64,000 nucleotides of DNA from a bacterium (GTDB lineage Bacteria > Patescibacteriota > Microgenomatia > Curtissbacterales > GWA2-41-24). Made by a program: the position numbers and the translations under genes. The stretch covers positions 432,412 through 496,411 of the forward strand of contig JAKAJD010000001.1 of the NCBI GenBank assembly GCA_021813945.1, written 5' to 3'. A model generated the notes under the pieces. It ran no database searches and had not been told where the DNA came from. It saw nothing but the letters and a program-made list of their open reading frames with translations. How positions within the stretch are numbered: position 1 is the first letter of the stretch; every line of letters begins with the position of its first letter. Shown piece after piece: positions 3,882 through 29,545 of the stretch.

Positions 3882-3903
3882 CTAAAGCAAACCTCATTTT
3901 CCC

Positions 3904-5007
3904 CTAGCCTATTTCGTAAAATCTTCCCTTATCCATAACCCCATTGGTTTTCTTCTTCGCCCGCGCAACCCGAGCCAGATGTTTTCGCTCTATTAGCATG
4001 CCATTTAGCATTTTTTCAATCTTACTAGTGTCTTTGCTGGCAAAATACCATTCAATAGTTTCCTTAACCCCATCTGCAAATTTCACTTTAGGTTCCCAGC
4101 CAAGAAGCTCTTTTGCCAAACTGTTATTTGCAACGCGATTCGCCGGCCCAGTCGGCATTTCGGGGTGAAGTTCAATCTCGGCTTGATGACCAGTTAAAGA
4201 AAGAATCGTCTGGGCAGTTTCCAAAACCGAAAGCCTTTCCTCCGTACCAAGATTAACACTCGTACCGTCATCAATTTTCTCAGCGGCCAAAACAAAACCG
4301 GAAACTATATCTCCTACATATGTCCAGTTCCTAACCTGCCTGCCGTTACCCCAAACAATAAAAGGGTTTTGTTTGATAAATGCTCTGGCAATCATAGCTA
4401 CAACCGCGTGGTCTTCCTTTGCCCTCGGGCCGTAAACCACGAAAAAGCGGCAGGAAGCAGACTTCATACCAAACTCCTTTGTATAAGCCTTAAGGGTCAT
4501 TTCGGCCATCAATTTTGCCCAACCGTACATATTATCGGCGTCATATGGTGGGCCTACTTGCTGCTCGGAAAGATAAAGTTTTTTGGTTGGATCTATTTGT
4601 AAATAGTTTGGGTAAACACAACCCGAAGACGCAAAAACTATTTTCTCTACACCGCTTTTGTGTGCCTGCCAAAAAAGGTTGCCATCTAAAAGCAGATTCC
4701 CCGCCGGACCCGCTTGATGAAGGTCTACATATCCGCGCCCACCATGGTCGCCAGCCAAATGAAAAATTAAGTCCACTCCCTTAACAGATTTTTTGGCAAC
4801 CTTCGTCTCTCTTAAATCACCTTTTATAAATTCTATGTTTTTATTTGTGACATGGTGTCTGATATTTTCCAAAGTTCCAGAAGACAAATCGTCAACGACC
4901 CTGACATCCACATTTTTGCAAACTAAAAGGTCCACCAAGTGTGAGCCGATAAATGAAGCCCCACCAGTCACCAAAACCTTCTTTCTTTTCCAAAAATTTT
5001 TGTTCAT
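3904..5007 (-). CDS. NAD-dependent nucleotide-sugar epimerase/dehydratase (SDR extended family)
   Basis: N-terminal Rossmann motif VLVTGGASFIGSHLV. The length is typical of an extended SDR. It overlaps the dehydrogenase gene by 4 nt. Confidence 0.8.
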   Translation of the reverse strand: MNKNFWKRKKVLVTGGASFIGSHLVDLLVCKNVDVRVVDDLSSGTLENIRHHVTNKNIEFIKGDLRETKVAKKSVKGVDLIFHLAGDHGGRGYVDLHQAGPAGNLLLDGNLFWQAHKSGVEKIVFASSGCVYPNYLQIDPTKKLYLSEQQVGPPYDADNMYGWAKLMAEMTLKAYTKEFGMKSASCRFFVVYGPRAKEDHAVVAMIARAFIKQNPFIVWGNGRQVRNWTYVGDIVSGFVLAAEKIDDGTSVNLGTEERLSVLETAQTILSLTGHQAEIELHPEMPTGPANRVANNSLAKELLGWEPKVKFADGVKETIEWYFASKDTSKIEKMLNGMLIERKHLARVARAKKKTNGVMDKGRFYEIG

Positions 5008-13537: not shown

Positions 13538-14764
13538 CTATTCATATCTCAACGCCTCTATTGGCTGCAAATTTGCGGCTTTTCTTGCCGGGTAAAGTCC
13601 AAAAATTATGCCGATACCTCCGGAAACCCCGATTGCCAAAGCAATAGAAGTTGGCGAAATCACAAATGGCGCACCGGTCAAGCGCGAAATGAGAAACGAT
13701 GCCACGACCCCAAAAATCATTCCGATTATTCCGCCTGCAAAGGTTAAAATTACGGCTTCTGTTAAAAACTGGGTTATTATCACTTTCTTTTTGGCTCCAA
13801 GCGCTTTTCGAAGGCCAATCTCGCGAGTCCGCTCAGTAACCGTCACAAGCATAATATTCATGATTCCAATTCCACCAACCAAAAGCGAAATTGCCGCAAT
13901 GCCCGCAAGAAGAGTTGTAAATGTGGCAGTAGTCGCCGAAACGGTATTTAAAATATCCTGTTGGGAAAAAATGGAAAAATCAGCTTGCGACGGATCCCTC
14001 AATTTATGTCTCGAAAGCAAAAGGTAACCAACCTGGTTTTCGGCTTCTACCATCACATCTTGGCTTTTGGCTTCAAGCGAAATGGCAGTCAGGTAGTTGA
14101 TTCCAAAAATTTGCCTTTGGGCTGTTGTCAATGGAATCCAGACAATATCATCCTGGTTGCCAAAACCGGTCCCACCTTTGGAAACCGTCTCGCCGACAAT
14201 TTTGAATATCTGTCCGTTTATTCGAATCTGTTGGCCAACACCGCTACTGCCCGCGCCGAATAAATCGCTGGCAACAGTTGGGCCAATAACGGCTACCTTT
14301 GAGGCTCCGTCGACATCCCGAGCCGAAATAAACTGGCCAGTATCAACTTGGACTTTATGGACTTGTGCATAAGCAGGCGTTACTCCGATAACCTGGACAT
14401 TACTGTTTGCACTGCCGGTTGAAACTTGCGCCCGCCTGGAAACTTCCGGAGAAACCGCACTTATGTTTGTCACCGCTCCCAAAGAATTGGAAATTGCATT
14501 AGCATCATCCAAAGTTAGGGTTGTGGACGATCCGGCTGCTTGGCGCACACCACCGGTATTGGGTGCGCCCGGACTAACAGTTAGCAAATTTGCGCCCAAT
14601 GACTGGATTCTACTTTGGACGGATTGGGAAGTTGCCTGCCCTAACGATATCAGGGCAATTACACTCCCAATCCCAATAACAATTCCTAAAATCGCCAAAC
14701 CGGTCCTGAGTTTATTGATAAAAAGGGTTCCAAAAGATTCGTTAACAACCTCCGAAAACTGCAT
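13538..14764 (-). CDS. ABC transporter permease, FtsX/MacB-type (4 TM helices with a large extracytoplasmic domain)
   Basis: The N-terminal TM helix is followed by a roughly 220-aa loop. The C-terminal FtsX-like TM bundle has a conserved RE(I/V)G(I/L)(R/K)KALGA motif. Confidence 0.8.
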   Translation of the reverse strand: MQFSEVVNESFGTLFINKLRTGLAILGIVIGIGSVIALISLGQATSQSVQSRIQSLGANLLTVSPGAPNTGGVRQAAGSSTTLTLDDANAISNSLGAVTNISAVSPEVSRRAQVSTGSANSNVQVIGVTPAYAQVHKVQVDTGQFISARDVDGASKVAVIGPTVASDLFGAGSSGVGQQIRINGQIFKIVGETVSKGGTGFGNQDDIVWIPLTTAQRQIFGINYLTAISLEAKSQDVMVEAENQVGYLLLSRHKLRDPSQADFSIFSQQDILNTVSATTATFTTLLAGIAAISLLVGGIGIMNIMLVTVTERTREIGLRKALGAKKKVIITQFLTEAVILTFAGGIIGMIFGVVASFLISRLTGAPFVISPTSIALAIGVSGGIGIIFGLYPARKAANLQPIEALRYE

Positions 14765-15471
14765 TAATTCACCCTTCTTGCCTTCCTGCGCACTCCGTTT
14801 TTATGATCAGATATTATTTTTCCGTCTTTTATCTGGATAATTCGTTTGGCATGTTCGGCAATATCCGGCTCATGCGTAATCATAATTATTGTGTGGCCCT
14901 GGGAATTTAATTTTTTAAAAATTGCCATGATCTCTTCAGCTTGGTTGGAAGCGATATTACCGGTTGGCTCGTCCGCCAAAATTATGCTCGGATCCAAAAC
15001 CAGCGCCCTGGCTATTGCCACGCGTTGCTGCTGACCACCCGAAAGCTGGTTGGAGGTGTGATCCAGCCGATCTCCCAACCCAACCATTTCTAGATATTTT
15101 CTAGCCCGCTGCCGCCTTTCCTCTTTGGGAATCTCGGCGTAAATCATAGGAATCATCACATTCTGAAGAGCTGTCCTTCGAGGCAATAAGTTAAAAGCCT
15201 GGAAAACAAAACCGATTTTGCGGTTTCTGATATCTGCCAAATCGTCATCCGACATATCTTCGACATCCTCACCGTCCAGCTCATATTTACCGCTCGTCGG
15301 CTTATCTAAAGCCCCCAGCATATGCATCAGGGTAGATTTGCCTGATCCGGAAGGACCCATAATGGCCACAAATTCGCCTTTTTGAACATTGAAGGAAACA
15401 TCATCAAGGGCAACCGTCTCAACGTCACCCGTTTGGTAAATTTTCGATAAGTTGGAAATCGTAATCATCAT
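14764..15471 (-). CDS. ABC transporter ATP-binding protein (MacB/LolD-type)
   Basis: Walker A GPSGSGKST. Signature LSGGQQQRVAIARAL. Walker B ILADEPTG. Confidence 0.85.
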   Translation of the reverse strand: MMITISNLSKIYQTGDVETVALDDVSFNVQKGEFVAIMGPSGSGKSTLMHMLGALDKPTSGKYELDGEDVEDMSDDDLADIRNRKIGFVFQAFNLLPRRTALQNVMIPMIYAEIPKEERRQRARKYLEMVGLGDRLDHTSNQLSGGQQQRVAIARALVLDPSIILADEPTGNIASNQAEEIMAIFKKLNSQGHTIIMITHEPDIAEHAKRIIQIKDGKIISDHKNGVRRKARRVN

Positions 15472-15477
15472 AACCTG

Positions 15478-16824
15478 TCATCTTCCTCCACCGCCGCCAA
15501 CAGCTCTAAAGAAACCGCCGCCTCCGCCACCGCTAAATGGCGAGGTGGAAGCCCCAGTTGTTCCACTTTTTGTGGGAGTGCTTGAAGAAGTAACAACCGT
15601 ATCGCCTTCGTTTATTCCGGATACTATCTCGGTTTGCGTATCGTTGGCCCCGCCGACAACAACAGGCACAGATTGAACATTTCCGTTTTTAAGAATCCTG
15701 ACTGTTGCCTGCCCACCTGCATTTTGCACCGCCGCAGAAGGAACCAAAAGCACATCACTTTTTACATCGGTAATAATGCTGGCAGATGCCGCCATATTTG
15801 GTAAAACTCCGGGCGCGTCGCTGTCAAATGCCACAAGAACTGTATAATTTGTGACTCCACTTGAAACTGTCCCAATGTTATCAACAGCAGCCACCTTGCC
15901 GGTGAAAGTTTTGCCCGGAAAAGCGTTAAGAGAAACAGTCACGTCTTGGCCAAGCTTAATTGAGCCAATATCGGTTTCCGAAGCATTAAAAGTGGCAACC
16001 GGCAAACCATTGTTTTGAATAACTGCAACCCTTTGGGAATTTTGGTTAGATCCGACAGACCCACCAGTTCCAACAGAAACAGATGACCCCTGACTTCCTA
16101 AAACCATTCCGGGAATAATCTGCACATTAGAAACCGTGCCAGCAATCGTGGAAGTGACGGCAGGTGACGCCAGCTGGAAGACAGACGATGCATTGCTAAG
16201 GCTGGCTTGGGAAGCCGCAATTGCCCCTTGCTGGTTTTTATAATTAGCTTCCGCTGCCAGCCAATCGTCCTGAACCGTTGTAAAAGCCGGCAGAGCCCTA
16301 TTGCCAACATTTGGGCTCCCATCTGCGTTTTGGTACGTAGAGTTAGTCGCAAGGTCTGTATACGTTTTCCATTTGGAATACATAGTAGATTGCAGACTAA
16401 AAAGTGTAGCATTGGCAGCATCCAAGTTGTGTTTAGCCAAAAGAAGTGACGCCTGTGCTTGGGTAAATTGTTGCTGGCCAACCGGATCTAGTGTTATCTG
16501 GGCAATTTGCTGCCCCGCAGAAACAGTATCACCATTTTTGACATAAACGTTAGAAACCACACCGCTTGCCGATGTAGATATATTAATTATGTTTGTGGAA
16601 AGTATTTGCCCGGATTCAGAAACACTTTGAACCAAAGTACCTTTCTGGGCCTGGGTTGATTGGTACGTAGGTTTTTGGGTTGAGGCTTTGTATCTTTGAA
16701 ACCCAAAATATCCCAAAACAACGATAATAATCAGCAAAATTGCCAACCTCTTGCGGCTTGAGAAAACTGAAAAAAAACGGCTTTTCCCCGCAGGCGAACT
16801 GTTTTTTCTCTTTACGTTTGCCAT
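15478..16824 (-). CDS. HlyD/MacA-family periplasmic adaptor subunit with a C-terminal poly-Gly tail
   Basis: The N-terminal TM anchor is followed by long coiled-coil/lipoyl-like regions. The protein ends in GGGGGGFFRAVGGGGGR. Confidence 0.65.
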   Translation of the reverse strand: MANVKRKNSSPAGKSRFFSVFSSRKRLAILLIIIVVLGYFGFQRYKASTQKPTYQSTQAQKGTLVQSVSESGQILSTNIINISTSASGVVSNVYVKNGDTVSAGQQIAQITLDPVGQQQFTQAQASLLLAKHNLDAANATLFSLQSTMYSKWKTYTDLATNSTYQNADGSPNVGNRALPAFTTVQDDWLAAEANYKNQQGAIAASQASLSNASSVFQLASPAVTSTIAGTVSNVQIIPGMVLGSQGSSVSVGTGGSVGSNQNSQRVAVIQNNGLPVATFNASETDIGSIKLGQDVTVSLNAFPGKTFTGKVAAVDNIGTVSSGVTNYTVLVAFDSDAPGVLPNMAASASIITDVKSDVLLVPSAAVQNAGGQATVRILKNGNVQSVPVVVGGANDTQTEIVSGINEGDTVVTSSSTPTKSGTTGASTSPFSGGGGGGFFRAVGGGGGR

Positions 16825-16861
16825 TTGCCAGTATTTTAAAAAAAAGTTGCTGAGAATAAGC

Positions 16862-17866
16862 TTAAGAATTTGGTAATAAGACGGTAAAAGTACTGCCTTT
16901 ACCTTCCTGGCTTTGTACGCTAATAGATCCGCCGTAAAGTTCCGCTATTTTTTTGGCAATGGAAAGCCCTAATCCATAACCATTGGCATTTACCTTAGAC
17001 CTGGCTTTATCGCCTCTATAAAATCTTTCAAAAACATGCTCTAAATTCTTTTTGGAAATTCCCATTCCGTTATCTGTTATTTTGACTGCAACATCATTGT
17101 TAATTTTTTCTACTTTTACTTTAACTGTTAATCCTTTCGGGCTGTACTTTATAGCATTATCAAAAAGAATAACCATAAGCTCAACAAGGCTTTCCCTTTC
17201 CGCCCTAACTTTGTATTTCGAATCTGAAATATCTAAAGTTATACTCCTTGATTTAGAAAGTGTTCTTACTCTGCGCTTTGCCTCCTCAAGTATTTGTGAA
17301 ACAGCAATAACCTCTAAAGGCAAATCCCCATTTAGCTTCTCAAACTGGGAAAGCCTTAAGAGCTTGTCTGTCAAAACTCTAAGATTCTCAATCTCTTCCA
17401 AGTTATCCCTCAGAAGACTTTTTGCTTCTGCCGAACTAAGGTTCTTTTCCCGAAGTCCAACTTCTGTCGACGTCTTAAGGGCAGTTAAAGGGGTTCTCAA
17501 CTCATGGGACGCACCCGAAATAAACTTATTCTGTTCGTCTATCATTTCCTCAATCGGATTTAAGGTTCTCCCTGCTAAAAAATATCCGGCCGCGCCGGAA
17601 AAGCCTAAAATCATGAGGTTAAAAATTATGAGGGCTATTCTTATTCTGGACCTGCTTTCTTCCAAAACTTCCGGATCGATCCTAAAAATACGGCCCGATG
17701 GCGCAAGACCCTGACTTTTTTCTTGCTGCCTTATTCGCTGAACCCTTTCGATCCTTGAAAGCTCATTTGTAGATCCAGCATAAATCATCACACTAAAAAT
17801 CGAACTAATCAACATGATAATTAGTAAATAGAAAAATGTAAGCTTTAACCGTGCCCGCTCAAACAT
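16862..17866 (-). CDS. Sensor histidine kinase (HisKA plus HATPase_c)
   Basis: H-box SHELRTPL. G-boxes DNGMGI and GLGLSIAKKIAELYGG. An N-terminal TM helix. Confidence 0.8.
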   Translation of the reverse strand: MFERARLKLTFFYLLIIMLISSIFSVMIYAGSTNELSRIERVQRIRQQEKSQGLAPSGRIFRIDPEVLEESRSRIRIALIIFNLMILGFSGAAGYFLAGRTLNPIEEMIDEQNKFISGASHELRTPLTALKTSTEVGLREKNLSSAEAKSLLRDNLEEIENLRVLTDKLLRLSQFEKLNGDLPLEVIAVSQILEEAKRRVRTLSKSRSITLDISDSKYKVRAERESLVELMVILFDNAIKYSPKGLTVKVKVEKINNDVAVKITDNGMGISKKNLEHVFERFYRGDKARSKVNANGYGLGLSIAKKIAELYGGSISVQSQEGKGSTFTVLLPNS

Positions 17867-18547
17867 TTAATTACTTTCTCCAATTTTGTAACCAAAACCG
17901 CGCTGTGTGTGGATAAGTTGCGGTAAATTTTTAAAAGCCCTGTCTACTTTATTTCTTAAATAACCCATGTATACCTCAACTGTATTAGGCAAGACATCAG
18001 AATCGTAATCCCAAACATGACCTATTATCTGGTCCTTTGTGAGTGTTTGACCAGTGTGCCGCATTAAATACTCCAAAAGCGCAAATTCACGGCTGGTAAG
18101 ATTGATTTTATTTTTACCCCGAAACACCTCGTAAGTTGTTGTATTTAAGGTTAAATTTGATACTTTAAGAGTGGTCTCCAAAGAATTTTTAGGTCTTCTT
18201 GAAAGCGCACGTACTCGGGCTAAAAGCTCTTCGAATGCAAACGGCTTAACCAGGTAATCGTCTGCCCCGGAATTTAAGCCCTCAACTTTATCGGAAATTT
18301 GCCCCCTGGCAGTTAAAATCAAAATTGGGGTGTGAATACCCTCCCCCCTGAGTTTCTTGCAAATTTCTACTCCGTCCATCTCGGGAAGCATCCGATCTAA
18401 GATAATCGCATCGTAATCTTCGCTGGAAGCCAAATCATATCCGTTGCTTCCTGTGTAAGCCACATCCACAGCTAAAGATTCTTGCTCCAAACCGCGCTTT
18501 ATAGAACCTGCAATTTTATGGTCATCCTCAACGACAAGCACTCTCAT
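17867..18547 (-). CDS. OmpR-family response regulator (receiver plus winged-helix domain)
   Basis: VLVVEDD at the N-terminus. Phospho-acceptor region ILDRMLP. KPF motif. C-terminal trans_reg_C domain. Confidence 0.85.
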   Translation of the reverse strand: MRVLVVEDDHKIAGSIKRGLEQESLAVDVAYTGSNGYDLASSEDYDAIILDRMLPEMDGVEICKKLRGEGIHTPILILTARGQISDKVEGLNSGADDYLVKPFAFEELLARVRALSRRPKNSLETTLKVSNLTLNTTTYEVFRGKNKINLTSREFALLEYLMRHTGQTLTKDQIIGHVWDYDSDVLPNTVEVYMGYLRNKVDRAFKNLPQLIHTQRGFGYKIGESN

Positions 18548-18593: not shown

Positions 18594-20156
18594 CTAGACA
18601 AAACCTGGAAAGAAATCGGTTTTGATATTCCTATTTAGAACGCCCATCGAAAGGAGTGTTTTTTCAAATGCGCTAACCATCGTGTGCGAGCCGGAAATAT
18701 AAAAAATGCGCTGCCTCCAGTCCGACACCTCTTCCATAATCATTTTTGAATCAACATAACCTCGCTTACCTTGCCAATTGCCTGGCGTGTCGGAACCTGT
18801 CAGGGTATAAATAGTCCTTATGCCAAGTTTATTTTCTGCTTCATCTAAAACATCTTTGTAGACAATTTCGCCGGCCTCTCTATTGCTGAAAAAAACAGTC
18901 ACATCCCGCTTTTCACCTGTATCCAACATATATTTGATCATGCTCCTAAAGGGGGTAATCCCAATTCCACCGGCCATAAAAACAAGCTTTGCAGTCTTGT
19001 CCTTAGGCAAAGTAAAATCACCGGCAAGCTGGGAAGCAATTATCACCGCGCCGCTTGAAAGCCCCGAAAGCGACTTTTTGAAACTGCTTGGAGGAGTGTA
19101 AAACTTGACTCCCAAAAGTATTTCATCCTCCGTTGGCGACGAAGCAATCGTAAAATAACGCCGCATTCCCCGGCTGTCTATATCATCGTGCCCCAAAGTC
19201 CATTCCAAGTACTGGCCTGGCAAAAAGGAAAATTTTTTATTTTTTTGGAAAACAAAATCCCAAACATCTTCTGATCGTTTCATTTTCTCTTTAAGTTTTA
19301 AATTCAACCTTCCCTTTGAACTGGTTAAGTAGGAAAAAACATTACCTAAAACCAAAGCAATCTCGGGTGTCGTATAAAAATCACCCAAATGAACCTGGGG
19401 AGCAAACAAAAAACCGACAAGTGCTCCATAAAAGGACTGTAAATTCTTTGTAGGGGGTGTTGTCATTGGCTCTGTTAACATCACGAACGCAAAAAACAAA
19501 ATTGGAGTGTAAAAAAGCGCATTTTTAAGCTGAGAAACAAGGTCTCCCCCTTTGACAATCACCGACAAACCTATCGTGGAAACCGAAACTAAAAGAAAGT
19601 AAAAAACCAAATCAAACCTTCTGATTTTTCGAACAATCAAAACTCCTAAAAGCACAAATGGCACAATTGGCAGTGTTCCCACCCACCAGCTTGCCGATTG
19701 TCCTAATACGAAAGAAGTAATAACTACAGATAAAGCAGCAGGGTTAAATATGTGTTTTGCCCGAAAAGCAATTATATATTTTGACGAAATCGCTAGAACT
19801 GCCGCCCAAAACAAAAGCCCAAAACCGTTGTAATTTGTTGCTGGCGAAATTATAAGGGCCAAAATCAAAGCGCTAATGTGAACCGACTCAACATTGGCTG
19901 GAACCCTAAAAACGTTCGCAAAAACGATATTGGTAACGTAACAAACGCCTAAAAGAAACAGTGTGGAAATTGTAAGGTAAACAGGGTTTATAGAAACAAT
20001 GCCCAAAAACCCCATCCCGACTGCCGCCAAAATTAAAAAAATCAAGTAGTACAAAACGAGTTTGTACATCGTGATCCGGTTTAAAAAACCGTCCACAAAA
20101 TCAAGCACCGGAAATAACATACCTAGAAAAGCCGGAGGTAAAAGTTGCCAACCCAT
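18594..20156 (-). CDS. Polytopic membrane protein (about 10 TM helices) fused to a C-terminal ferredoxin-NADP-reductase-like FAD/NAD(P)-binding module
   Basis: C-terminal FAD motif RRYFTIAS and NAD(P) motif GGIGITP. The listed start overlaps the apbE 3' end. The true start is probably an internal Met, around 20120 or 20069. Confidence 0.6.
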   Translation of the reverse strand: MGWQLLPPAFLGMLFPVLDFVDGFLNRITMYKLVLYYLIFLILAAVGMGFLGIVSINPVYLTISTLFLLGVCYVTNIVFANVFRVPANVESVHISALILALIISPATNYNGFGLLFWAAVLAISSKYIIAFRAKHIFNPAALSVVITSFVLGQSASWWVGTLPIVPFVLLGVLIVRKIRRFDLVFYFLLVSVSTIGLSVIVKGGDLVSQLKNALFYTPILFFAFVMLTEPMTTPPTKNLQSFYGALVGFLFAPQVHLGDFYTTPEIALVLGNVFSYLTSSKGRLNLKLKEKMKRSEDVWDFVFQKNKKFSFLPGQYLEWTLGHDDIDSRGMRRYFTIASSPTEDEILLGVKFYTPPSSFKKSLSGLSSGAVIIASQLAGDFTLPKDKTAKLVFMAGGIGITPFRSMIKYMLDTGEKRDVTVFFSNREAGEIVYKDVLDEAENKLGIRTIYTLTGSDTPGNWQGKRGYVDSKMIMEEVSDWRQRIFYISGSHTMVSAFEKTLLSMGVLNRNIKTDFFPGFV

Positions 20157-20844
20157 CTCTTCCTATCATATACCCTTCTAAACCTGGCTTGCCCTCAATA
20201 AAGTTGATGCCTGCCTTGCCCATTGCAAACGCAGAAGTTGCAAACCTGTCTGCTTCGTAAACATCCGAGCCTACAACAGTTAGGCTTTTAACGTGATTTT
20301 CCAAATGTCCGTTCGGATTATAAATATGGTCTCCCCGCTCATAAGTGCCGGACGTTGCAACTCCCCCGTCTGCAATATTTATTACTTTTACAATTTCCCC
20401 GCTGTTAAATGGGTTTTTTATACCAACCCTCCAAGGCCTCAAATATTTATTCAAACCCCGGGTTTGAATATCCCCCCCGGCATCAATATAGTAATTTTTG
20501 TAACCTTCCAAATCTAAAATCCTACCTGCATTATAGATTGCCCACCCCTTCACAATTCCCGAAGGGTCCATCACCCCGTTGCGCCAAATGTCGAAATATC
20601 CATTAGATTCCCTCTTTGTTTTTTCTGCAAGCTTCAATATCGTCCACATACCTTCACTGTAGTCTTTTTTATGAATCTCACCCCTGTTAATTCGCGAAAC
20701 TTCACTATCCTTTTTATATGGGCTGAATTTCGAATCTACATATCTAAAATAGGCAAAAACTTTATCAAACGACTCTTTTCGGCAATAACCATCGACTACC
20801 TCCAGTGTTATATGCATCCCCATTATGTTTTTTGTTCTCTTCAT
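20101..20844 (-). CDS. apbE: ApbE-family FAD:protein FMN transferase (flavin transferase)
   Basis: N-terminal MGMHITLEV (MGT-type start). C-terminal ATSGTYERGDHIYNPNGH, the typical ApbE C-terminal motif. Its ATG overlaps the upstream stop as ATGA. Confidence 0.7.
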   Translation of the reverse strand: MKRTKNIMGMHITLEVVDGYCRKESFDKVFAYFRYVDSKFSPYKKDSEVSRINRGEIHKKDYSEGMWTILKLAEKTKRESNGYFDIWRNGVMDPSGIVKGWAIYNAGRILDLEGYKNYYIDAGGDIQTRGLNKYLRPWRVGIKNPFNSGEIVKVINIADGGVATSGTYERGDHIYNPNGHLENHVKSLTVVGSDVYEADRFATSAFAMGKAGINFIEGKPGLEGYMIGRDGLATFTSGFSRYVISGA

Positions 20845-21347
20845 GTTCTTGCCTTTGCTAGCGCAGAACCCAGCGACTGAATAAATGCCCTGCTGGAATC
20901 ACTCGCCCCGGAAACTATATCCACACTGGCGCTTTGCGCCGCTATTGCTTCCTGCTTTAAATATGGCATCGCCTGAGTGTTAATTTCGACGGAGGTTCTT
21001 CTATCGTGCGGATAGTCCAAAAACGTAACATCCGCTATCTTTCCACCGGAAATCGAGACTGCTACCTGAATATTCCCGTAATAGGCATCCGCCGAACTAC
21101 CGGTGTATTGACCATCACGATACTGGCCTGAAGGTTTTGGGGTAGGTGGCGCGCTGACGGGAGTACTCACAGGTTGCCCGAGCGGCGTAGGGCTAGAAAC
21201 AGCTCCTGGTGTAGGTGAAGTACTTGGAAAGGCTTTTGCTTGATCCGGAGAAAAGGCCTGGGTATCCAATTTGCCCCCTATTCCTTTATGCAGCGCGTAA
21301 AAAATAAAGGAAATAACTACAAATGCAGATAGCGAAACCTTTCTCAT
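20841..21347 (-). CDS. Exported FMN-binding-domain protein: a signal anchor, a Pro/Ser/Thr linker and an FMN_bind domain carrying the candidate flavinylation motif DIVSGAS
   Basis: An N-terminal hydrophobic anchor, a PTP-rich linker, and a C-terminal DxxSGA(S/T) motif characteristic of ApbE substrates. Translationally coupled to apbE. Confidence 0.6.
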   Translation of the reverse strand: MRKVSLSAFVVISFIFYALHKGIGGKLDTQAFSPDQAKAFPSTSPTPGAVSSPTPLGQPVSTPVSAPPTPKPSGQYRDGQYTGSSADAYYGNIQVAVSISGGKIADVTFLDYPHDRRTSVEINTQAMPYLKQEAIAAQSASVDIVSGASDSSRAFIQSLGSALAKART

Positions 21348-21389: not shown

Positions 21390-21418
21390 TTACTTAGCTC
21401 TTGCCAATTTGCTATAAT
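21390..21418 (+). promoter_or_regulatory. Candidate sigma70-type promoter for ddl (TTACTT-N17-TATAAT)
   Basis: A perfect -10 hexamer lies 16 nt upstream of the ddl ATG. The -35 is weak. Confidence 0.25.
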
Positions 21419-21434
21419 CCTCAAAGCCCGCATT

Positions 21435-22427
21435 ATGCCAAAAACAGTAGCAGTAATCTTCGGTGGCAAATCCGCAGAACACGAAGTATCTGTAATCTCA
21501 GGAAAAAGCGTCGCCAAAAACTTAGACCCTAAAAAATTTAAAGTCCGTCAGATTTTTATAGATAAAAAAGCTATCTGGCACAAAAACGGCAAAAAACAGA
21601 CAGCGGAAAGCTGTCTAAAAGGCGCAGATGTTGCATTTCCTGTCCTTCACGGCAACTACGGTGAAGACGGAACCATCCAGGGCTTATTTGAAATGCTAAA
21701 TGTCCCCTACGTTGGCTGTGGTGTTACCCAATCCGTACTCGGAATGGACAAGGAATTTTCCAAAATTATCTGGCAGCAAAACAGCCTGCCTGTTTGCAAA
21801 TTCAAAGCAGTCACCAAAGGAGACTGGCTAAAAAGCAAAAGGCCCCTTGTAAAAGAAATCCTTAAACTCAAGTTTCCTTTATTTGTTAAACCCGCAAACC
21901 TTGGATCAAGCGTTGGAATCACAAAAGTCAAAACCCCAAAAGACTTGGAAAAAGCAATAAGGCTAGCTTTTTCCTACGGCTATAAAATTATTGTGGAAGA
22001 AGGTGTTGTAGACGCCCGCGAAATCGAGGTGTCGGTTTTAGGAGCCGACACAATCATATCTAGCATTTGTGGTGAAATTATTCCGGCAAATGAATTTTAT
22101 GATTACGAGGCCAAATACAGTGACGTTGGCTCAAAACTTCTAATTCCTGCTCCTATCGACAGAAAAACAGCATCACAAATTAAAAAAACAGCCGAAGAAG
22201 CGTACAAGCTTCTTAACCTCGATAGTTTAGCCCGAGCAGATTTTCTACTCTCCAAAAAAAGTGGCAAATTTGTAATCAATGAAGTTAACACAATGCCCGG
22301 ATTTACCCCAATTTCAATGTATCCCAAACTTTGGGAAGCATCTGGCCTTCCCTATCAAAAGCTTTTAACCAAGCTAATATCAATCGCCGAGCAGAATTTT
22401 CGCCAAAAATCCGGTTGGAAAATTTAA
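21435..22427 (+). CDS. ddl: D-alanine--D-alanine ligase
   Basis: N-terminal VAVIFGGKSAEHEVS. ATP-grasp fold. Length 330 aa. Confidence 0.85.
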   Translation: MPKTVAVIFGGKSAEHEVSVISGKSVAKNLDPKKFKVRQIFIDKKAIWHKNGKKQTAESCLKGADVAFPVLHGNYGEDGTIQGLFEMLNVPYVGCGVTQSVLGMDKEFSKIIWQQNSLPVCKFKAVTKGDWLKSKRPLVKEILKLKFPLFVKPANLGSSVGITKVKTPKDLEKAIRLAFSYGYKIIVEEGVVDAREIEVSVLGADTIISSICGEIIPANEFYDYEAKYSDVGSKLLIPAPIDRKTASQIKKTAEEAYKLLNLDSLARADFLLSKKSGKFVINEVNTMPGFTPISMYPKLWEASGLPYQKLLTKLISIAEQNFRQKSGWKI

Positions 22428-23147
22428 CTATTGGGAAGAAGCACCGTTCACAAATTTATAGCCAACGTTCCACACGGTAATAAAGTGCTGGGGGTCTTTA
22501 GGGTCTTTCTCAAAAGCTCTTCTAAGATTCGAAATTACGTCACTAACCAATGGATACTCACCATCCACCACCTGTTCCAGTTCTTTTTTTCCTATAACTC
22601 TTCCAGGATTGTCTACAAATAGCTCAAGCAGTTTCCAGGCCCTCAATTTAATTCTTAAATCGACCCCATCTCTTGTAAGTGCACGCCCTTTAAAGTCTAC
22701 ATTTACGTCACCAATTTTTATAGGTTTAAGCTCTTCCTTACTAACAAGAATGGGTCTTCTCCTGGCAATAACCGCTCTCATATAAGAAAGGGCTAGTCTG
22801 GAGTTCATTGGGAGAGCTAAAAACTGTTCGGCTCCGGAATCAAGAACTTCTTCTGCGATATCAAAGTTACCGGAAGCAACTGCATACCCGATATTTCTTT
22901 TTTTAAGTTCATCAACGAGCGGCAGTCTATAAGTTTGGTCGTCTAAAACCACGAGCTGAGGCCGTGTTGCCAGGATTCTTCTAGCTCCGTCAAATTTTAC
23001 CGGAAACAGTGTCACATCCAATCCGTAAGTGCCAAATCTCTTTTTCCACTCTTCAAAAGGCTCACGGTTGGAATAAACAACCGCCACCTTATGCCTTTTA
23101 GCCGCTTCCACCAGTCTGCCCGGAAAAACCGCACAACGTTCACACAT
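22428..23147 (-). CDS. Atypical OmpR/PhoB-type transcriptional regulator: a degenerate receiver-like N-domain plus a winged-helix DNA-binding domain
   Basis: C-terminal wHTH (LTRDGVDLRIKLRAWKLLELF...VWNVGYKF). The N-domain lacks the N-terminal DD pair and the conserved Lys. Its stop codon directly abuts the ddl stop. Confidence 0.55.
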   Translation of the reverse strand: MCERCAVFPGRLVEAAKRHKVAVVYSNREPFEEWKKRFGTYGLDVTLFPVKFDGARRILATRPQLVVLDDQTYRLPLVDELKKRNIGYAVASGNFDIAEEVLDSGAEQFLALPMNSRLALSYMRAVIARRRPILVSKEELKPIKIGDVNVDFKGRALTRDGVDLRIKLRAWKLLELFVDNPGRVIGKKELEQVVDGEYPLVSDVISNLRRAFEKDPKDPQHFITVWNVGYKFVNGASSQ

Positions 23148-26432: not shown

Positions 26433-26894
26433 ATGTACAAAAAACTTTTACCGCTCCTAACTCTCGCATTTATACTTATAGCAACACCGGTTTTAGCAAA
26501 TGAAGACAGCAACAAACCGCAAAACCACGGATTCTTTGTTTCCGCAGAAGCACACGAACATGAGGGCGGAGCCGCAGTTTCCGCAGTTGCCAAATCAGAC
26601 ATCGGCAAGCATCACGACGAAGATGAAAACGAAAATGAAGATGAAGACTTGGACGATGATGACAACATAATCGTTTCTCCAAACCCAAGCGCTTCTCCTA
26701 TCGTATCGCCCAGTCCAACAGTAGAGCCATCTGCAACTCCAAGCCCGAGTGTTCTACCTTCAGCATCACCAAGTCCTTCTGTTTCACCAAGCCCGAGCCC
26801 AACTGCAACAGTGACAGTCAACACAAATGTTATCCAAGGATTAATCGACCAGCTAAATAACCTCATAGCAAGCCTCAAGAACCTGCTTTCGTAA
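26433..26894 (+). CDS. Secreted low-complexity protein: signal peptide, an acidic HHDEDENENEDEDLDDDDN block and SP(S/T)-rich repeats
   Basis: Signal peptide MYKKLLPLLTLAFILIATPVLA. Repeated SPSPS/SPTV units. Divergent from the ECF sigma operon. Confidence 0.5.
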   Translation: MYKKLLPLLTLAFILIATPVLANEDSNKPQNHGFFVSAEAHEHEGGAAVSAVAKSDIGKHHDEDENENEDEDLDDDDNIIVSPNPSASPIVSPSPTVEPSATPSPSVLPSASPSPSVSPSPSPTATVTVNTNVIQGLIDQLNNLIASLKNLLS

Positions 26895-26914: not shown

Positions 26915-28246
26915 TTAAGATCTGAATTTTGCGCGGTTAAAATAGAGCCAAGCACCAGATGCTAAGACCATAACAACACCAAGCCTAAGCGCTAAATCCG
27001 TCCCGAAGCGATCAGATACAAGTCCAACTTCAAAATTTCCTATCGGGAAAAATCCCAAAAACGTAATGGTATAAAGACTCAAAACTCTGCCTCGATACCT
27101 ATCTTCGACTAGATGCTGAATCGTGCTATTTATGGTTGGAAACACCATTAAAAGCCCGAACCCGACAAAAAACAAAAGTACGAGTGCCAAAATAAAATTT
27201 GCAGTCATTGTAAAAAGTGTGAGAGACAAAACAAAAAGAACAGTGCCGGAAATCATATAAATAAACGGCTCAAATTTATTGCCAAGCGCAGAAACAATCA
27301 TTGCCGCCAAAAACGCCCCCACACCGGAAGCCGCGTAAAGTTGTCCTAAACCGCTTGGGCCAACATGAAACGTGTTTTGTGCAATAACCGGCATCATTGT
27401 GGAATATGACCAGCCGAAAATCGAAACAATTCCTGAATAAATCAAAAGGGGTTTTATGACAGGATGGGAAAGCGAATAAGAAACACCTTCACGTATAGCC
27501 TGAATCGGATGCGGATGCACATCGTGCGTCTTAAAAGCAGCAAGCCTCATCAAAATTAAAGCTACAATTACCGCAATATAAGAAATTCCATTTATAATGA
27601 AGGCTCCTCCAACACCAACCAGGGCAATCAAAATTCCCGCAACACTAGGCCCGATTACGCGCGCTCCATTCCAGGTTCCGGAAACAAGCGCTATAGCAGA
27701 AGAGATATGTTCCTTCTCCACCATTTCGCCGACAAATGCTTGCCTGGCCGGTGCATCTAGTGCATTCACAATTCCTAACAAAAACGCCAAAGTAAAAATT
27801 TCAGAAATATTTATTAGATGAAAAACAGTTAAAAATCCGTAAATCAATGCCAGAACCATCGAGGCACCTTGGGTAAAAAACAAAATATTGCGCTTGGGTA
27901 ACCTGTCTACTATCACCCCTCCAAAAAGTGCCAAAACCAGAGTCGGCAAGGTGGCCAAAGCCGCAACTGCTCCCACATAAAACGCCGAATGGGTGATCTG
28001 AAAAACCAAAAATCCCTCGGCAACTATTTGGAGCCAGGTACCGATTAAAGAAACCAGCTGACCAAAAAAGTAGAGGCGGAAATTGCGGTTACTTAAAGCA
28101 GGAAATACACCTAAAAATTTCAATGCCCAACCACCTGCCTCGCCTACCGAGATTTCGGAAGATTCAGAAATGATATACTTTTCGCCAGCGGAAAATTCCC
28201 CGCTCCCATCATTTTTTTGCTCCATTGGATCATTATAAACTTCCAA
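26915..28246 (-). CDS. MFS transporter
   Basis: About 12 TM helices and a DRLPKRN-type motif after TM2. Length 443 aa. Confidence 0.8.
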   Translation of the reverse strand: MEVYNDPMEQKNDGSGEFSAGEKYIISESSEISVGEAGGWALKFLGVFPALSNRNFRLYFFGQLVSLIGTWLQIVAEGFLVFQITHSAFYVGAVAALATLPTLVLALFGGVIVDRLPKRNILFFTQGASMVLALIYGFLTVFHLINISEIFTLAFLLGIVNALDAPARQAFVGEMVEKEHISSAIALVSGTWNGARVIGPSVAGILIALVGVGGAFIINGISYIAVIVALILMRLAAFKTHDVHPHPIQAIREGVSYSLSHPVIKPLLIYSGIVSIFGWSYSTMMPVIAQNTFHVGPSGLGQLYAASGVGAFLAAMIVSALGNKFEPFIYMISGTVLFVLSLTLFTMTANFILALVLLFFVGFGLLMVFPTINSTIQHLVEDRYRGRVLSLYTITFLGFFPIGNFEVGLVSDRFGTDLALRLGVVMVLASGAWLYFNRAKFRS

Positions 28247-28321: not shown

Positions 28322-29545
28322 ATGACAAGAATGCAAACTGACAAATTCGATGTAATAGTAGCAGGCGCGGGACCGGCCGGAAGCAACTTAGCAAGACAAC
28401 TAAGCCAAAAAAATTACAAAGTGCTCCTTCTGGAAAAAAGCCAGGAAATAGGAAGTCCCAACTTTTCAAGTGCTGGCTCCCCAGACTATATTGTAAAAGA
28501 TTTTTCCCTACCCCAAAGCGTGGTTGCGGCTACTTGGGATAAATTTGAAATCGTAACGCCCAAAAACTCGCACATTTGGAATTACAAAAAAGCTCGAGGC
28601 GTTGTTTTAAAATTTAATAAACTAAAGCGCTTTCTAACAGAAGTTGCTGCCAAAAATGGTGCAAAAGTATTAGTTGGGACTTATGCAACCGATCTCATTT
28701 TTGAGGGGAAAAAACCAATCGGTGTTAAATTTTCCGGACTCCAAAAAGGTGAAGCCTTTGCAAAAATTATAGTCGATGCCTCAGGCCCAAGCGGAATGCT
28801 TGCCCGGCAAGCCGGTTTGCGAAGCGCAAAACTTTGCCCGCCTTCAATAGGCTTAGAATACATTGTCACAAACGTTAAATTCCCAAACCAGAATACAATT
28901 TCGTTTTACCTGGGCAACAGCTTCGCCCCTAAAGGTTATGCATGGGTTTTTCCGATGGGTAAAAATGAAGCCAAAATCGGCATAGGAATTTACGAATCAA
29001 GCACATTCAAACACAAAACAGAGCTTGAAATCTTAAACGAGTTTAAAAACAAGCTTCCATACATGAATGACGCCCAACCTCTGGAGTTGCATGGGAGCAC
29101 ACTTTTTATCTCAAAAGGTTCAACAGCTGCGGTAAATGGAAATATCATATCAATCGGCGATTCGGCAGCCCAAATTAATCCGCTTGGCGGCGAGGGTGTC
29201 CGCCACGCTCTACAGGCCTCCCAAATGGCCCAAGAAGCAATAGATTTAGCCATGAAAAAAGGCAATCTCGCCCTTTTAGAAAATTACCAAAAAGAATGGA
29301 AAAAATATACCGGCCGCAAATGGCAAATTTCTTATCTTTTGACCAAAGTAGTCTACAGAAATTTCACCGACGACATGTATGATGAAGCACTAAACTTAGC
29401 CAAAAGCCTGACTCCAGATGAAATTTTTCAGGTATTTTTTGAATATAATTTCAAAATAGGCTTAAAAGCCCTAAGGGGAAACTTAAAGAGAAAAATGTTT
29501 GCACTTGCCCTAAAAAACCGGATTGCTTCTACGGCTCCTTTTTAG
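28322..29545 (+). CDS. Geranylgeranyl-reductase-family FAD-dependent oxidoreductase
   Basis: N-terminal DVIVAGAGPAGS dinucleotide motif. The overall length and GD motif region fit the GGR family. Confidence 0.7.
   Translation: MTRMQTDKFDVIVAGAGPAGSNLARQLSQKNYKVLLLEKSQEIGSPNFSSAGSPDYIVKDFSLPQSVVAATWDKFEIVTPKNSHIWNYKKARGVVLKFNKLKRFLTEVAAKNGAKVLVGTYATDLIFEGKKPIGVKFSGLQKGEAFAKIIVDASGPSGMLARQAGLRSAKLCPPSIGLEYIVTNVKFPNQNTISFYLGNSFAPKGYAWVFPMGKNEAKIGIGIYESSTFKHKTELEILNEFKNKLPYMNDAQPLELHGSTLFISKGSTAAVNGNIISIGDSAAQINPLGGEGVRHALQASQMAQEAIDLAMKKGNLALLENYQKEWKKYTGRKWQISYLLTKVVYRNFTDDMYDEALNLAKSLTPDEIFQVFFEYNFKIGLKALRGNLKRKMFALALKNRIASTAPF

Follow-up and report, generated by a model that had tools for sequence, protein, structure and literature searches.

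The window analyzed here, a 64-kb stretch of patescibacterial DNA, carries on its minus strand (21347..18594) a three-gene module that raises the question of how NAD(P)H electrons might be passed through flavins to the outside of the membrane, and of where the protein that would receive them obtains its own flavin. All three open reading frames (ORFs) were present at the coordinates assigned to them in a first-pass annotation of this DNA.

RESULTS

Layout of the module

Gene 1 (20841..21347, minus strand) encodes a 168-amino-acid protein matching Pfam FMN_bind (36.1 bits; cut-off, 22), and gene 2 (20101..20844, minus strand) encodes a 247-amino-acid ApbE (PF02424, 138.3 bits; cut-off, 25.6), so that both proposed assignments were upheld by the profile searches. 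Gene 3 (18594..20156, minus strand; 520 amino acids from Met1) encodes a membrane domain of the RnfD/NqrB-like type with 10 transmembrane (TM) helices, followed by an FNR-type FAD/NAD(P)H reductase. The three genes had been described as tightly linked through ATGA overlaps. The linkage was confirmed, but the only ATGA junction of the module is that between genes 1 and 2; genes 2 and 3 overlap by 56 nucleotides if gene 3 starts at Met1 or by 20 nucleotides if it starts at Met13. The alignment of homologs favored Met13 (20120) or Met1 (20156) as the likely start, giving a product of 508 to 520 amino acids, while the Met30 start of the ENA annotation was disfavored because the conserved FVDGFLNRIT segment would be lost. 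A weak sigma-70-like promoter match (21414..21441, minus strand; 9/12 matches) lies upstream of gene 1 and is suggestive only, such sites being no more common there than in shuffled sequence. No terminator-like site was found in the interval from gene 3 to the response regulator gene, and Rfam and tRNA scans of the window gave no matches.

Gene 3: an RnfD/NqrB-like membrane domain fused to a reductase

The C-terminal portion of gene 3 (residues 283-520; 18597..19310, minus strand), which ends in FFPGFV, was assigned to the FNR-type module from its match to NAD_binding_1 (66.1 bits), a subthreshold match to FAD_binding_6 (18.9 bits), and the motifs RRYFTIAS (residues 332-339; 19140-19163, minus strand) and GGIGITP (residues 396-402; 18951-18971, minus strand). 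The distribution of basic residues predicted 10 TM helices with the FNR module inside. The earlier description of a roughly 10-TM protein fused to a C-terminal FNR-like module was thus borne out.

The same annotation had held that this protein is neither Nqr nor Rnf, and this could not be maintained. The membrane domain (residues 1-280; 19317..20156, minus strand) is an RnfD/NqrB homolog, and the reductase module is NqrF-like. The homology to RnfD rests on family-level and fold evidence, since the protein itself scored 23.4 bits for NQR2_RnfD_RnfE (PF03116), below the cut-off (27.7), and RnfD escapes detection in single-sequence searches. Neither a phmmer search against the PDB nor a search of the window ORFs with RsxD detected the relationship, which was seen only with profiles and folds. 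The TM fold is that of RnfD/NqrB, and in MAFFT alignments the domain was collinear throughout with Escherichia coli RsxD (anchors NxES..P, FNPA, and LT[DE]P). The RsxD loop segment of about 75 residues that contains GISQATPL, the flavinylated-Thr loop of RnfD/NqrB, had no counterpart in the gene 3 family in these alignments. Its position is occupied by 10 residues, GQSASWWVGT, which include the short loop QSASWW (residues 153-158; 19683..19700, minus strand); residue 156 is S, T, or N in the family, and the predicted topology places the deleted loop outside. The flavinylation Thr of NqrB/RnfD was likewise reported not to be conserved in NQR/RNF-like membrane domains (Huang 2024, PMC11334425).

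Gene 3 contains a single Cys, and the only invariant His residues of its membrane domain are H135 and H256. Fe-S clusters and a bis-heme center are therefore both unlikely. The lack of obvious bis-heme His pairs, previously listed as an oddity, was confirmed and is to be expected, since RnfD/NqrB-type domains carry flavins rather than heme. More than 7,600 homologs of gene 3 were found at E ≤ 1e-5, and at E ≤ 1e-30 the family comprised 374 clusters at 50% identity; mean column identity in the homolog alignment was 67%. A copy of gene 3 with 100% identity is present on a 975,962-bp ENA contig.

Gene 1: an FMN_bind protein with a predicted membrane anchor

The best PDB sequence match of gene 1 was 8p2a, the FMN-binding domain of a multi-flavinylated protein (E = 7e-12). 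Pairwise BLAST against E. coli RsxG was not significant (E = 7.1), and gene 1 was therefore deduced to have a compact FMN_bind domain and not to be a close ortholog of RnfG/NqrC. It had been proposed to be an exported FMN_bind protein with a DxxSGA(S/T) motif; the domain and the motif stand, while its form is corrected to that of a protein probably anchored in the membrane by an N-terminal TM helix (residues 4-20, VSLSAFVVISFIFYALH; 21288..21338, minus strand), with MRK ahead of the anchor. The anchor sequence is conserved in homologs as LSxFV..F..Y. Among 70 module-linked homologs, mean K+R around the anchor was 2.59 for the N flank and 1.14 for the C flank, the N flank being more basic in 50 and less basic in 3. 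The excess of basic residues on the N side predicts an N-in/C-out orientation. The Chloroflexota versions have K/R-rich N-tails of 18 to 45 residues, and the linker that follows the anchor in gene 1 is 52% Pro/Ser/Thr.

The flavinylation motif DIVSGAS (residues 143-149; 20901..20921, minus strand) aligns with the SGAT site of 8p2a, making Ser149 the predicted FMN attachment site. The pattern [DN]xx[ST]GA[ST] was found in 67 of the 70 homologs, with a final Thr in 56 and Ser in 11; GGAT was seen in both of the two inspected among the three that lack it. From these features gene 1 is predicted to be the ApbE substrate and an outward-facing electron carrier. Export of an already flavinylated domain by the Tat pathway was considered and rejected, as gene 1 lacks a twin-arginine motif and, of the 70 module-linked homologs, just one (L022) has RR ahead of the anchor.

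Gene 2: a leaderless, shortened ApbE

The AF2 model of gene 2 (pLDDT, 90.9) matched 39 ApbE/FmnB/Ftp chains in Foldseek with a probability of 1.00. Against FmnB, Vibrio cholerae ApbE, and Ftp, the TM-scores were 0.83 to 0.88 when normalized to query length but only 0.62 to 0.71 when normalized to target length. About 55 residues equivalent to E. coli ApbE residues ~106 to 160 are skipped in the profile alignment, and the helical domain inserted in the N-terminal T-fold of ApbEs (T. maritima residues 88-190; PMC12052999) is missing. The protein begins right at the first beta-strand (MKRTKNIMGMHITLEV). No signal peptide or lipobox was found; the reading frame is closed by a stop 18 codons ahead of the ATG, and no alternative start codon occurs in between. 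The leaderless state was shared by every module locus examined and by all 120 top homologs (238 to 263 amino acids), which bears out the earlier remark that this ApbE has no obvious signal peptide although its likely substrate is exported. The length of the module's ApbE is also constant, at about 248 amino acids.

The segments RGDHIYNP (His173) and EADRFAT (Asp199 and Thr203), which together span 20236..20337 (minus strand), fall in the active-site region when compared with solved ApbEs and correspond to HVIDP and EADAWDT of E. coli ApbE. His173, Asp199, and Thr203, which we take to be the catalytic His and the Mg2+ ligands, are invariant in 31 family members. The core fold and the aligned active-site residues of this ApbE are thus intact. 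An apparent natural fusion of FMN_bind and ApbE (L082, 444 amino acids) would have meant that the two proteins share a compartment, but it was rejected because the ORF runs from a second, frameshifted FMN_bind gene into ApbE; the remaining long "ApbE" ORFs in homologous loci were upstream overextensions by the ORF finder.

Conservation and genomic neighborhood

The module was found in at least 556 species genomes, mostly of Patescibacteria and Chloroflexota (Anaerolineae). Among the 76 loci with enough upstream sequence to be assessed, at least 62 contained all three genes, with the order FMN_bind-ApbE-membrane protein at 58 loci and with ApbE first, then FMN_bind and the membrane protein, at 4. 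These conserved loci span the two phyla and have unrelated flanks. The module is a self-contained and widespread unit.

Downstream on the same strand of the window are genes for a response regulator, a histidine kinase, a membrane-fusion protein, an ABC ATPase, and MacB. The reported position directly upstream of a two-component system and a MacB-type exporter is therefore correct, but a conserved partnership is not: such genes were near the module in only 11 to 13 of 82 loci and were absent at two loci inspected gene by gene, and a functional link was rejected. The most frequent neighbor family occurred in at most 16% of the 82 loci, which provided no conserved neighbor pointing to an electron acceptor. 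Homologs of E. coli RsxA, -B, -C, -E, and -G were not found by phmmer in the 64-kb window, and genes of a six-subunit Rnf/Nqr operon were also absent from the flanks of related loci. The first-pass annotation had also considered that gene 3 might resolve as a canonical NqrB/RnfD or NqrF fragment of a larger operon. The RnfD/NqrB kinship is real; the larger operon is not there.

Comparison with known systems

The closest match was the "NQR/RNF-like system" described in Actinobacteria and CPR (Méheust et al. 2021, eLife 10:e66878, PMC8238504; Huang et al. 2024, mSystems 9:e00375-24, PMC11334425), from which the module has no essential difference. Both place an NqrB/RnfD-like membrane domain (PF03116) and a C-terminal, cytosolic, NqrF-like NAD-binding module (PF00175) on one polypeptide, and both have lost the flavinylation Thr of NqrB/RnfD. 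In both, ApbE and an FMN_bind protein with an anchor are encoded nearby, the published definition allowing either or both within five genes; here the two lie immediately upstream of gene 3, with an N-terminal hydrophobic segment in gene 1 and none in ApbE. CPR occurrence and a proposed one-way flow from NAD(P)H to an extracytosolic flavin are also shared. The system was catalogued from genomes in 2021, and this role was proposed at that time and since (PMC8238504, PMC11334425). The module was therefore already known in silico, and its novelty had been overstated in the first-pass annotation: the fusion with its ApbE and FMN_bind partners was published in 2021 and 2024, CPR included. With at least 556 species genomes found here, it is far more common than the 127 clusters reported. 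An abundance of this order is not mentioned in either paper, nor is the leaderless, insert-less cognate ApbE.

The six-subunit operon, with RnfA/E (NqrD/E), RnfB, and RnfC (NqrA) among its products, and the covalent FMN site in RnfD/NqrB that characterize canonical Rnf and Na+-NQR are both absent from the module. It does share with the RnfC-RnfD-RnfG branch of Rnf (PDB 8ahx and 7zc6) an anchored FMN_bind partner flavinylated by ApbE and a link between NAD(H) and an outer-face flavin through an RnfD domain. Unlike Rnf, it has no RnfA, -E, or -B; RnfC (FMN and two [4Fe-4S] clusters) is replaced by a fused FNR module free of Fe-S, the covalent-FMN loop of RnfD is deleted, and the FMN_bind protein is a compact domain of about 90 residues without significant pairwise similarity to RsxG. 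Its electrons presumably exit the complex, whereas those of Rnf return to the cytoplasm. Compared with the NqrB, NqrC, and NqrF subunits of Na+-NQR (PDB 7xk3 and 8a1t), the module lacks NqrA, -D, and -E as well as the 2Fe-2S ferredoxin domain and TM helix of NqrF. Its reductase is joined to the B-like subunit, whereas NqrF feeds NqrD/E, and the B-like domain has no covalent FMN site and shows no sign of a quinone site.

An ApbE-family transferase, a membrane-tethered outward FMN_bind protein, external acceptors, and monoderm cells are shared with the flavin-based extracellular electron transfer of Listeria (FmnB/PplA/Ndh2/EetAB). There, electrons cross the membrane by the quinone pool and EetA/B, while a single RnfD-like::FNR polypeptide is proposed here; FAD for FmnB, a lipoprotein, comes through a dedicated ECF exporter (PMC9973259), while the ApbE of the module has no export signal. 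A leaderless ApbE adjoining its substrate gene is found with the Klebsiella fumarate reductase and the Vibrio acrylate and cinnamate reductases. Those substrates are soluble and cytoplasmic, whereas for gene 1 the anchor is predicted to run N-in/C-out and the flavin pocket of its partner to lie on the outward side.

DISCUSSION

The domains assigned above, their folds and motifs, the predicted topology, and the conservation of the three genes as a linked set mark the module as what is probably a typical NQR/RNF-like flavinylation system, passing NAD(P)H electrons outward via flavins. We infer its cofactor content, direction of electron flow, acceptor, and place of flavinylation as follows. The cytoplasmic FNR-type module of gene 3 would bind FAD and oxidize NAD(P)H, and would be joined in the same polypeptide to the cytoplasmic C-terminal end of the 10-TM domain. 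This domain, having lost the covalent-FMN loop, presumably keeps noncovalent flavin at the riboflavin and/or FMN sites known from RnfD/NqrB. Beside it, gene 1 would hold its small FMN_bind domain outside the membrane on one conserved TM helix and a Pro/Ser/Thr-rich tether, ApbE having transferred FMN from FAD to Ser149. Electrons would then move from NAD(P)H to FAD, to the flavin(s) of the membrane domain, to the covalent FMN on gene 1, and finally to an extracytosolic acceptor. The module would thus resemble the RnfC-RnfD-RnfG half of Rnf run outward from NAD(P)H, with the fused FNR module in place of RnfC. RnfD/NqrB contains riboflavin and FMN and relays electrons between RnfG/NqrC and the cytoplasmic side (PMC12174285), and in a published AlphaFold-multimer model the flavinylation site of the anchored subunit lies at the flavin pocket of the membrane domain (Huang 2024, PMC11334425). 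The functional idea of a minimal NAD(P)H-to-extracytoplasmic-flavin conduit accordingly survives from the first-pass annotation, in agreement with the published hypothesis, the domains, and the topology, though not as a novelty.

The placement of gene 1 bears on a different reading, modeled on the cytoplasmic fumarate, acrylate, and cinnamate reductases, in which the FMN_bind domain lies inside on an N-out anchor, ApbE is cytosolic, and the membrane domain is a mere anchor or a quinone/substrate site. A leaderless ApbE in every module examined would suit this arrangement, and cytosolic ApbEs serving cytosolic FMN_bind enzymes are documented (PMC12052999), but we consider it unlikely. The anchor flanks (50 homologs against 3), the K/R-rich N-tails in Chloroflexota, and the Pro/Ser/Thr-rich tether all argue against it; with the FNR module inside, the outer face is where both the flavin pocket of RnfD type and what remains of the flavinylation loop come to lie, and the multimer model also docks the subunit on that side (PMC11334425). 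Electrons might instead flow inward, from an extracytosolic donor through the covalent FMN to NAD(P)+. Sequence cannot tell the direction of flow, and Rnf is reversible (PMC12174285). Uphill reduction of NAD(P)+ through flavins would nevertheless be unfavorable for this module, because it has no ion-gradient-coupling apparatus. Where an FNR-type module is joined to a TM domain, its usual role is that of an NAD(P)H-oxidizing input, and inward flow is judged quite improbable.

Electron transfer through the RnfD/NqrB-like domain could also be coupled to Na+ or H+ export. Such an ion pump is given little credence, as coupling in Rnf/NQR is thought to need both the RnfA/E (NqrD/E) switch and an RnfG/NqrC that shuttles between two partners (PMC12174285), both absent here, and the conserved polar residues could equally serve in flavin binding. 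That the module is the degenerate remnant of some canonical rnf or nqr operon would be in keeping with its RnfD/NqrB-like domain, its NqrF-like reductase, and the membership of FMN_bind in the RnfG/NqrC domain family. This explanation is effectively refuted: besides the lack of RsxA/B/C/E/G homologs in the 64 kb, the fusion and three-gene order are kept in at least 62 loci that have unrelated flanks and come from two phyla, the 374 clusters make up a large family, and the ORFs are intact and well conserved. Scarcely any probability attaches to a heme enzyme of the NOX/ferric reductase type, with a bis-heme TM domain and an FNR-like dehydrogenase domain. PF01794 (Ferric_reduct) had no match in gene 3, the two heme-ligand His pairs of the six-TM domain were not found beyond the two invariant His residues noted above, and the TM fold is that of RnfD/NqrB.

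Within the preferred outward NQR/RNF-like reading, one assembly step is hard to account for: the enzyme that would add the flavin carries no export signal, whereas the protein it would modify is predicted to lie on the outer side. It is conceivable, if rather doubtful, that the leaderless, insert-less ApbE works in the cytoplasm, attaching flavin to the FMN_bind subunit ahead of its translocation; alternatively, ApbE may reach the outer face via an unrecognized route. If cytoplasmic flavinylation were true, small-genome CPR and Chloroflexota would possess an extracytosolic flavin wire without FAD export, and this would be the first ApbE-modified protein to cross a membrane with its flavin already attached. 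As a more remote extension, an RnfD-like domain that retained ion translocation would be a two-subunit redox pump, a minimal membrane potential generator for respiratory-chain-poor CPR cells.

The example in the window is clean and complete rather than a new kind of system. The system to which it belongs, built from flavins only, is distributed very widely, with over 7,600 protein clusters and no fewer than 556 species-level genomes, and its conserved leaderless mini-ApbE poses the question of where and how an outward-facing protein is flavinylated. For Patescibacteria (CPR), which are mostly without respiratory chains, the module is among the few candidate routes for disposing of NAD(P)H electrons outside the cell, and it might serve to balance redox state, to reduce iron, or to react with oxygen or the surface of a host.

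Organization of the three-gene module

The module consists of three co-oriented ORFs on the minus strand of the window (18594-21347). The domain identities proposed in the first-pass annotation were borne out by Pfam, with matches to FMN_bind for gene 1 (21347..20841, 168 aa, 36.1 bits), to ApbE for gene 2 (20844..20101, 247 aa, 138.3 bits), and to NAD_binding_1 for gene 3 (20156..18594, 520 aa, 66.1 bits). The motifs quoted there were all located as well: DIVSGAS at residues 143-149 of gene 1, and RRYFTIAS (332-339) and GGIGITP (396-402) in gene 3. Gene 3 also gave sub-threshold Pfam matches to FAD_binding_6 and, at residues 172-275, to NQR2_RnfD_RnfE, for which the score was 23.4 bits and the cut-off is 27.7. 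The ATGA overlaps described for the module were found between genes 1 and 2 but not between genes 2 and 3, which overlap by 56 nt if gene 3 is read from Met1 and by 20 nt if it is read from Met13. Since conservation among gene 3 homologues begins at about residue 17 (FVDGFLNRITMY), the start was deduced to be Met13 or Met1 rather than Met30, which would remove a conserved N-terminal segment. Public annotations differ on this start (window 18594-20156; in the related loci, L001:6001-7476 versus L087:3653-5215), the ENA record giving a 491-aa protein from Met30 and the NCBI MAG GCA_027349345.1 one of 520 aa from Met1.

The membrane protein and its reductase module

The C-terminal half of gene 3 was assigned to FNR-type reductases (flavohemoprotein, Fre, NqrF, and BenC in NCBIfam). 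A database search returned more than 7,600 homologues at E ≤ 1e-5, nearly all of 490-520 aa with the two-part layout in common, and many carried the source tag PF03116 or the name "RnfD subunit / ferredoxin-NADP reductase." Independent tests agree that the membrane domain is RnfD/NqrB-like. PF03116 was matched by all 31 members of the gene 3 family alignment at E ≤ 0.01 (best, 1.4e-10; Pfam), and a profile built from just the membrane domain matched a single PDB sequence, Azotobacter vinelandii RnfD (8ahx_D, E 0.017). An hhalign comparison with E. coli RsxD gave 86.6% probability (E 4e-6) across the last four helices, pairing LTEPxTTPPT with LTDPVTASTT. In a MAFFT alignment, the two proteins were collinear between the NxES...P motif and the C terminus, with FNPA in between, and the outer loop of RsxD (about 75 residues, with the flavinylated Thr in GISQATPL) was absent from gene 3, which has the 10-residue GQSASWWVGT instead. 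The PF03116, RnfD, and hhalign matches overturn the earlier statement that the membrane partner is neither Nqr nor Rnf, as the domain is Rnf/Nqr-derived.

Loops of gene 3 alternate in mean K+R content, with values of 1.8, 3.0, 3.7, and 4.8 on one side and 0.0 to 0.7 on the other. This pattern predicts 10 transmembrane helices, with the FNR module and the two termini on the inside and what is left of the flavinylation loop on the outside, in agreement with the initial description of a roughly 10-TM protein with an FNR-like C terminus. The absence of bis-heme His pairs was likewise confirmed: the membrane domain contains only two invariant His residues, on opposite faces, and gene 3 has one Cys, so neither Fe-S nor bis-heme chemistry is expected.

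The putative flavin carrier and its transferase

Gene 1 begins with MRK and a 17-residue hydrophobic anchor. A linker, 52% of it Pro/Ser/Thr, leads from there to a compact FMN_bind domain, whose nearest solved relatives occur in multi-flavinylated proteins (8p2a, E 7e-12); pairwise comparison with E. coli RsxG gave no significant similarity. Of the two flanks of the anchor, the N-terminal one was richer in basic residues in 50 homologues and poorer in 3, and the Chloroflexota versions have long, K/R-rich N-terminal tails. No twin-arginine motif was present in the window protein, and RR preceded the anchor in only one homologue. From these sequence features, and from the predicted position on the outer face of the gene 3 pocket that it must reach, the FMN_bind domain is predicted to face outward.

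Additional carriers were observed in related loci. The FMN_bind protein encoded at L041:3266-4213, an extra flavin carrier, has two domains and two DLISGAT sites, and L025:3955-4398 is a second FMN_bind gene. An apparent FMN_bind-ApbE fusion at L082:2939-5005 was rejected, as a second, frameshifted FMN_bind copy read through into ApbE only mimics one.

Gene 2 aligns to solved ApbEs over both T-fold halves. Three of its residues, H173, D199, and T203, are invariant across the family and correspond to positions conserved in E. coli ApbE; we take them for the catalytic His and the metal ligands. The model (pLDDT 90.9) gave TM-scores to FmnB, ApbE, and Ftp of 0.83 to 0.88 when normalized to the length of gene 2 and 0.62 to 0.71 on their lengths. 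About 55 residues are skipped in the alignment, corresponding to E. coli ApbE 106-160; these lie in the helical domain, an insert in the N-terminal T-fold (PMC12052999). The lack of a signal peptide, remarked upon in the first-pass annotation, was upheld: an in-frame stop is found 18 codons upstream of the ATG, and no other start codon intervenes. In every locus examined, the module ApbE starts with MKxTRxxMGMP at the first beta-strand, with a median length of 248 aa (range, 244 to 261), and the top 120 database homologues of gene 2 were all 238 to 263 aa. The signal-less ApbE is a conserved feature of the module.

A leaderless ApbE is set against a carrier predicted to face outward. The leaderless ApbEs known so far act on soluble cytoplasmic reductases, and when Salmonella ApbE was expressed in the cytosol, it could not restore growth without thiamine to an apbE mutant (PMC12052999). 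Flavinylation may precede export, or the module ApbE may leave the cytoplasm by an unrecognised route. A third reading places the FMN_bind domain in the cytoplasm, where the cytosolic ApbE would flavinylate it. This all-cytoplasmic arrangement would mean that the outward prediction for gene 1, with the basic flank in 50 homologues, is wrong, and we consider it improbable. No comment on the leaderless ApbE was found in the papers of Méheust et al. 2021 (PMC8238504) or Huang et al. 2024 (PMC11334425).

Distribution and genomic context

A census of one genome per species found a gene 3 relative in at least 556 genomes, the best 80 loci being mostly from Patescibacteria lineages and Chloroflexota/Anaerolineae. 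These 80, together with two loci from homologue contigs, formed the comparison set. All three genes lay on one strand in at least 62 of the 76 loci with enough upstream DNA, a lower bound because over-extended ORFs caused a few further loci to be miscounted. The order was FMN_bind-ApbE-membrane protein in 58 loci and ApbE-FMN_bind-membrane protein in 4 (L006, L024, L040, and L057, at about 3600-5000), three of these four being labelled Candidatus Levyibacteriota. The possibility that gene 3 is a fragment of a larger NqrB/RnfD or NqrF operon held only as far as its RnfD/NqrB-like character, as no further Rnf/Nqr subunit was found in the 64-kb window, which also contained no second ApbE or FMN_bind gene.

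The two-component system and MacB-type exporter reported next to the module were located directly downstream on the minus strand (13538-18547), where an OmpR-type response regulator (17867-18547) and a histidine kinase (16862-17866) are followed by a membrane-fusion protein whose tail is poly-Gly (15478-16824; ...SGGGGGGFFRAVGGGGGR), and this in turn by an ABC ATPase (14764-15471) and the permease, of MacB type (13538-14764). Flanks vary among the module loci. The commonest neighbour families (membrane-fusion protein, ABC, histidine kinase, response regulator, and ECF sigma factor) each occur in only 9 to 13 of the 82 loci, and the two-component system and exporter are therefore not part of the module; genes similar to them were near it in only 11 to 13 of the 82. 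No terminator-like site was found between gene 3 and the response-regulator gene, and the genes may be co-transcribed in this genome.

Elsewhere in the window, immediately upstream of ddl, a divergent gene that adjoins the module, a minus-strand gene (22428-23147) encodes a 239-aa protein whose sole match was a C-terminal Trans_reg_C winged helix (residues 165-232). No receiver domain was recognised, and the protein resembles an orphan regulator of the OmpR family. On the plus strand, a 153-aa protein (26433-26894) combines an N-terminal hydrophobic segment with a stretch that is acidic and rich in His and with extended Ser/Pro/Thr repeats (SPSPTVEPSATPSPSVLPSASPSPSVSPSPSP); its sole Pfam match was a far-sub-threshold one to Trypan_PARP. 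Also on the plus strand, a geranylgeranyl-reductase-like FAD protein (28322-29545; GGR_cat, 61.9 bits) adjoins an MFS_3 transporter (26915-28246) and is a second flavoenzyme in an otherwise reduced-looking genome. GC skew was negative in all 2-kb bins of the window (1-64000; cumulative, -4.87), long ORFs were mostly on the minus strand, and no tRNA genes or Rfam families were found across the 64 kb.

Relation to known systems and proposed electron path

An "NQR/RNF-like system" has been defined as a flavinylation-associated cluster in which an N-terminal membrane domain of NqrB/RnfD type (PF03116) is fused to an NqrF-like NAD-binding domain (PF00175) at the C terminus (Méheust et al. 2021, PMC8238504). 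Huang et al. 2024 (PMC11334425) modelled a two-subunit complex from Ktedonobacter, pointed out the loss of the NqrB/RnfD flavinylation site, and suggested that the anchored subunit's covalent flavin samples the membrane domain's non-covalent flavin site. The defining fusion, its linkage to ApbE and FMN_bind genes, and the loss of the flavinylation site are all found in the window module, which is almost certainly a member. The published survey retrieved just 127 clusters and considered flavinylation "strikingly underrepresented" in CPR. Our literature search located the architecture only in these two papers and found no description with experiments. The module is not a new system, its architecture and proposed role having been published in 2021 and 2024; the functional interpretation in the first-pass annotation was largely right.

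In the known RnfD/NqrB path, the FMN on RnfG/NqrC donates electrons to that on RnfD/NqrB, from which they pass via riboflavin to the cytoplasmic partner (PMC12174285). By analogy, the window module would most likely run this branch outward. From its domains, folds, motifs, predicted topology, and linkage, we infer cofactor occupancy, direction, and acceptor as follows. NAD(P)H would reduce the FAD of the fused FNR module, from which electrons would move to one or more non-covalent flavins in the membrane domain of gene 3, then to the FMN carried by Ser149 in the tethered domain of gene 1, and finally to an external acceptor. We regard this path as probable; its physiological role would be to regenerate NAD(P)+ or to reduce iron or oxygen. 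The interest of the module is modest and lies in how widely the system occurs, and in its conserved mini-ApbE, leaderless and without the helical insert domain, which poses a sharp puzzle that is open to test.
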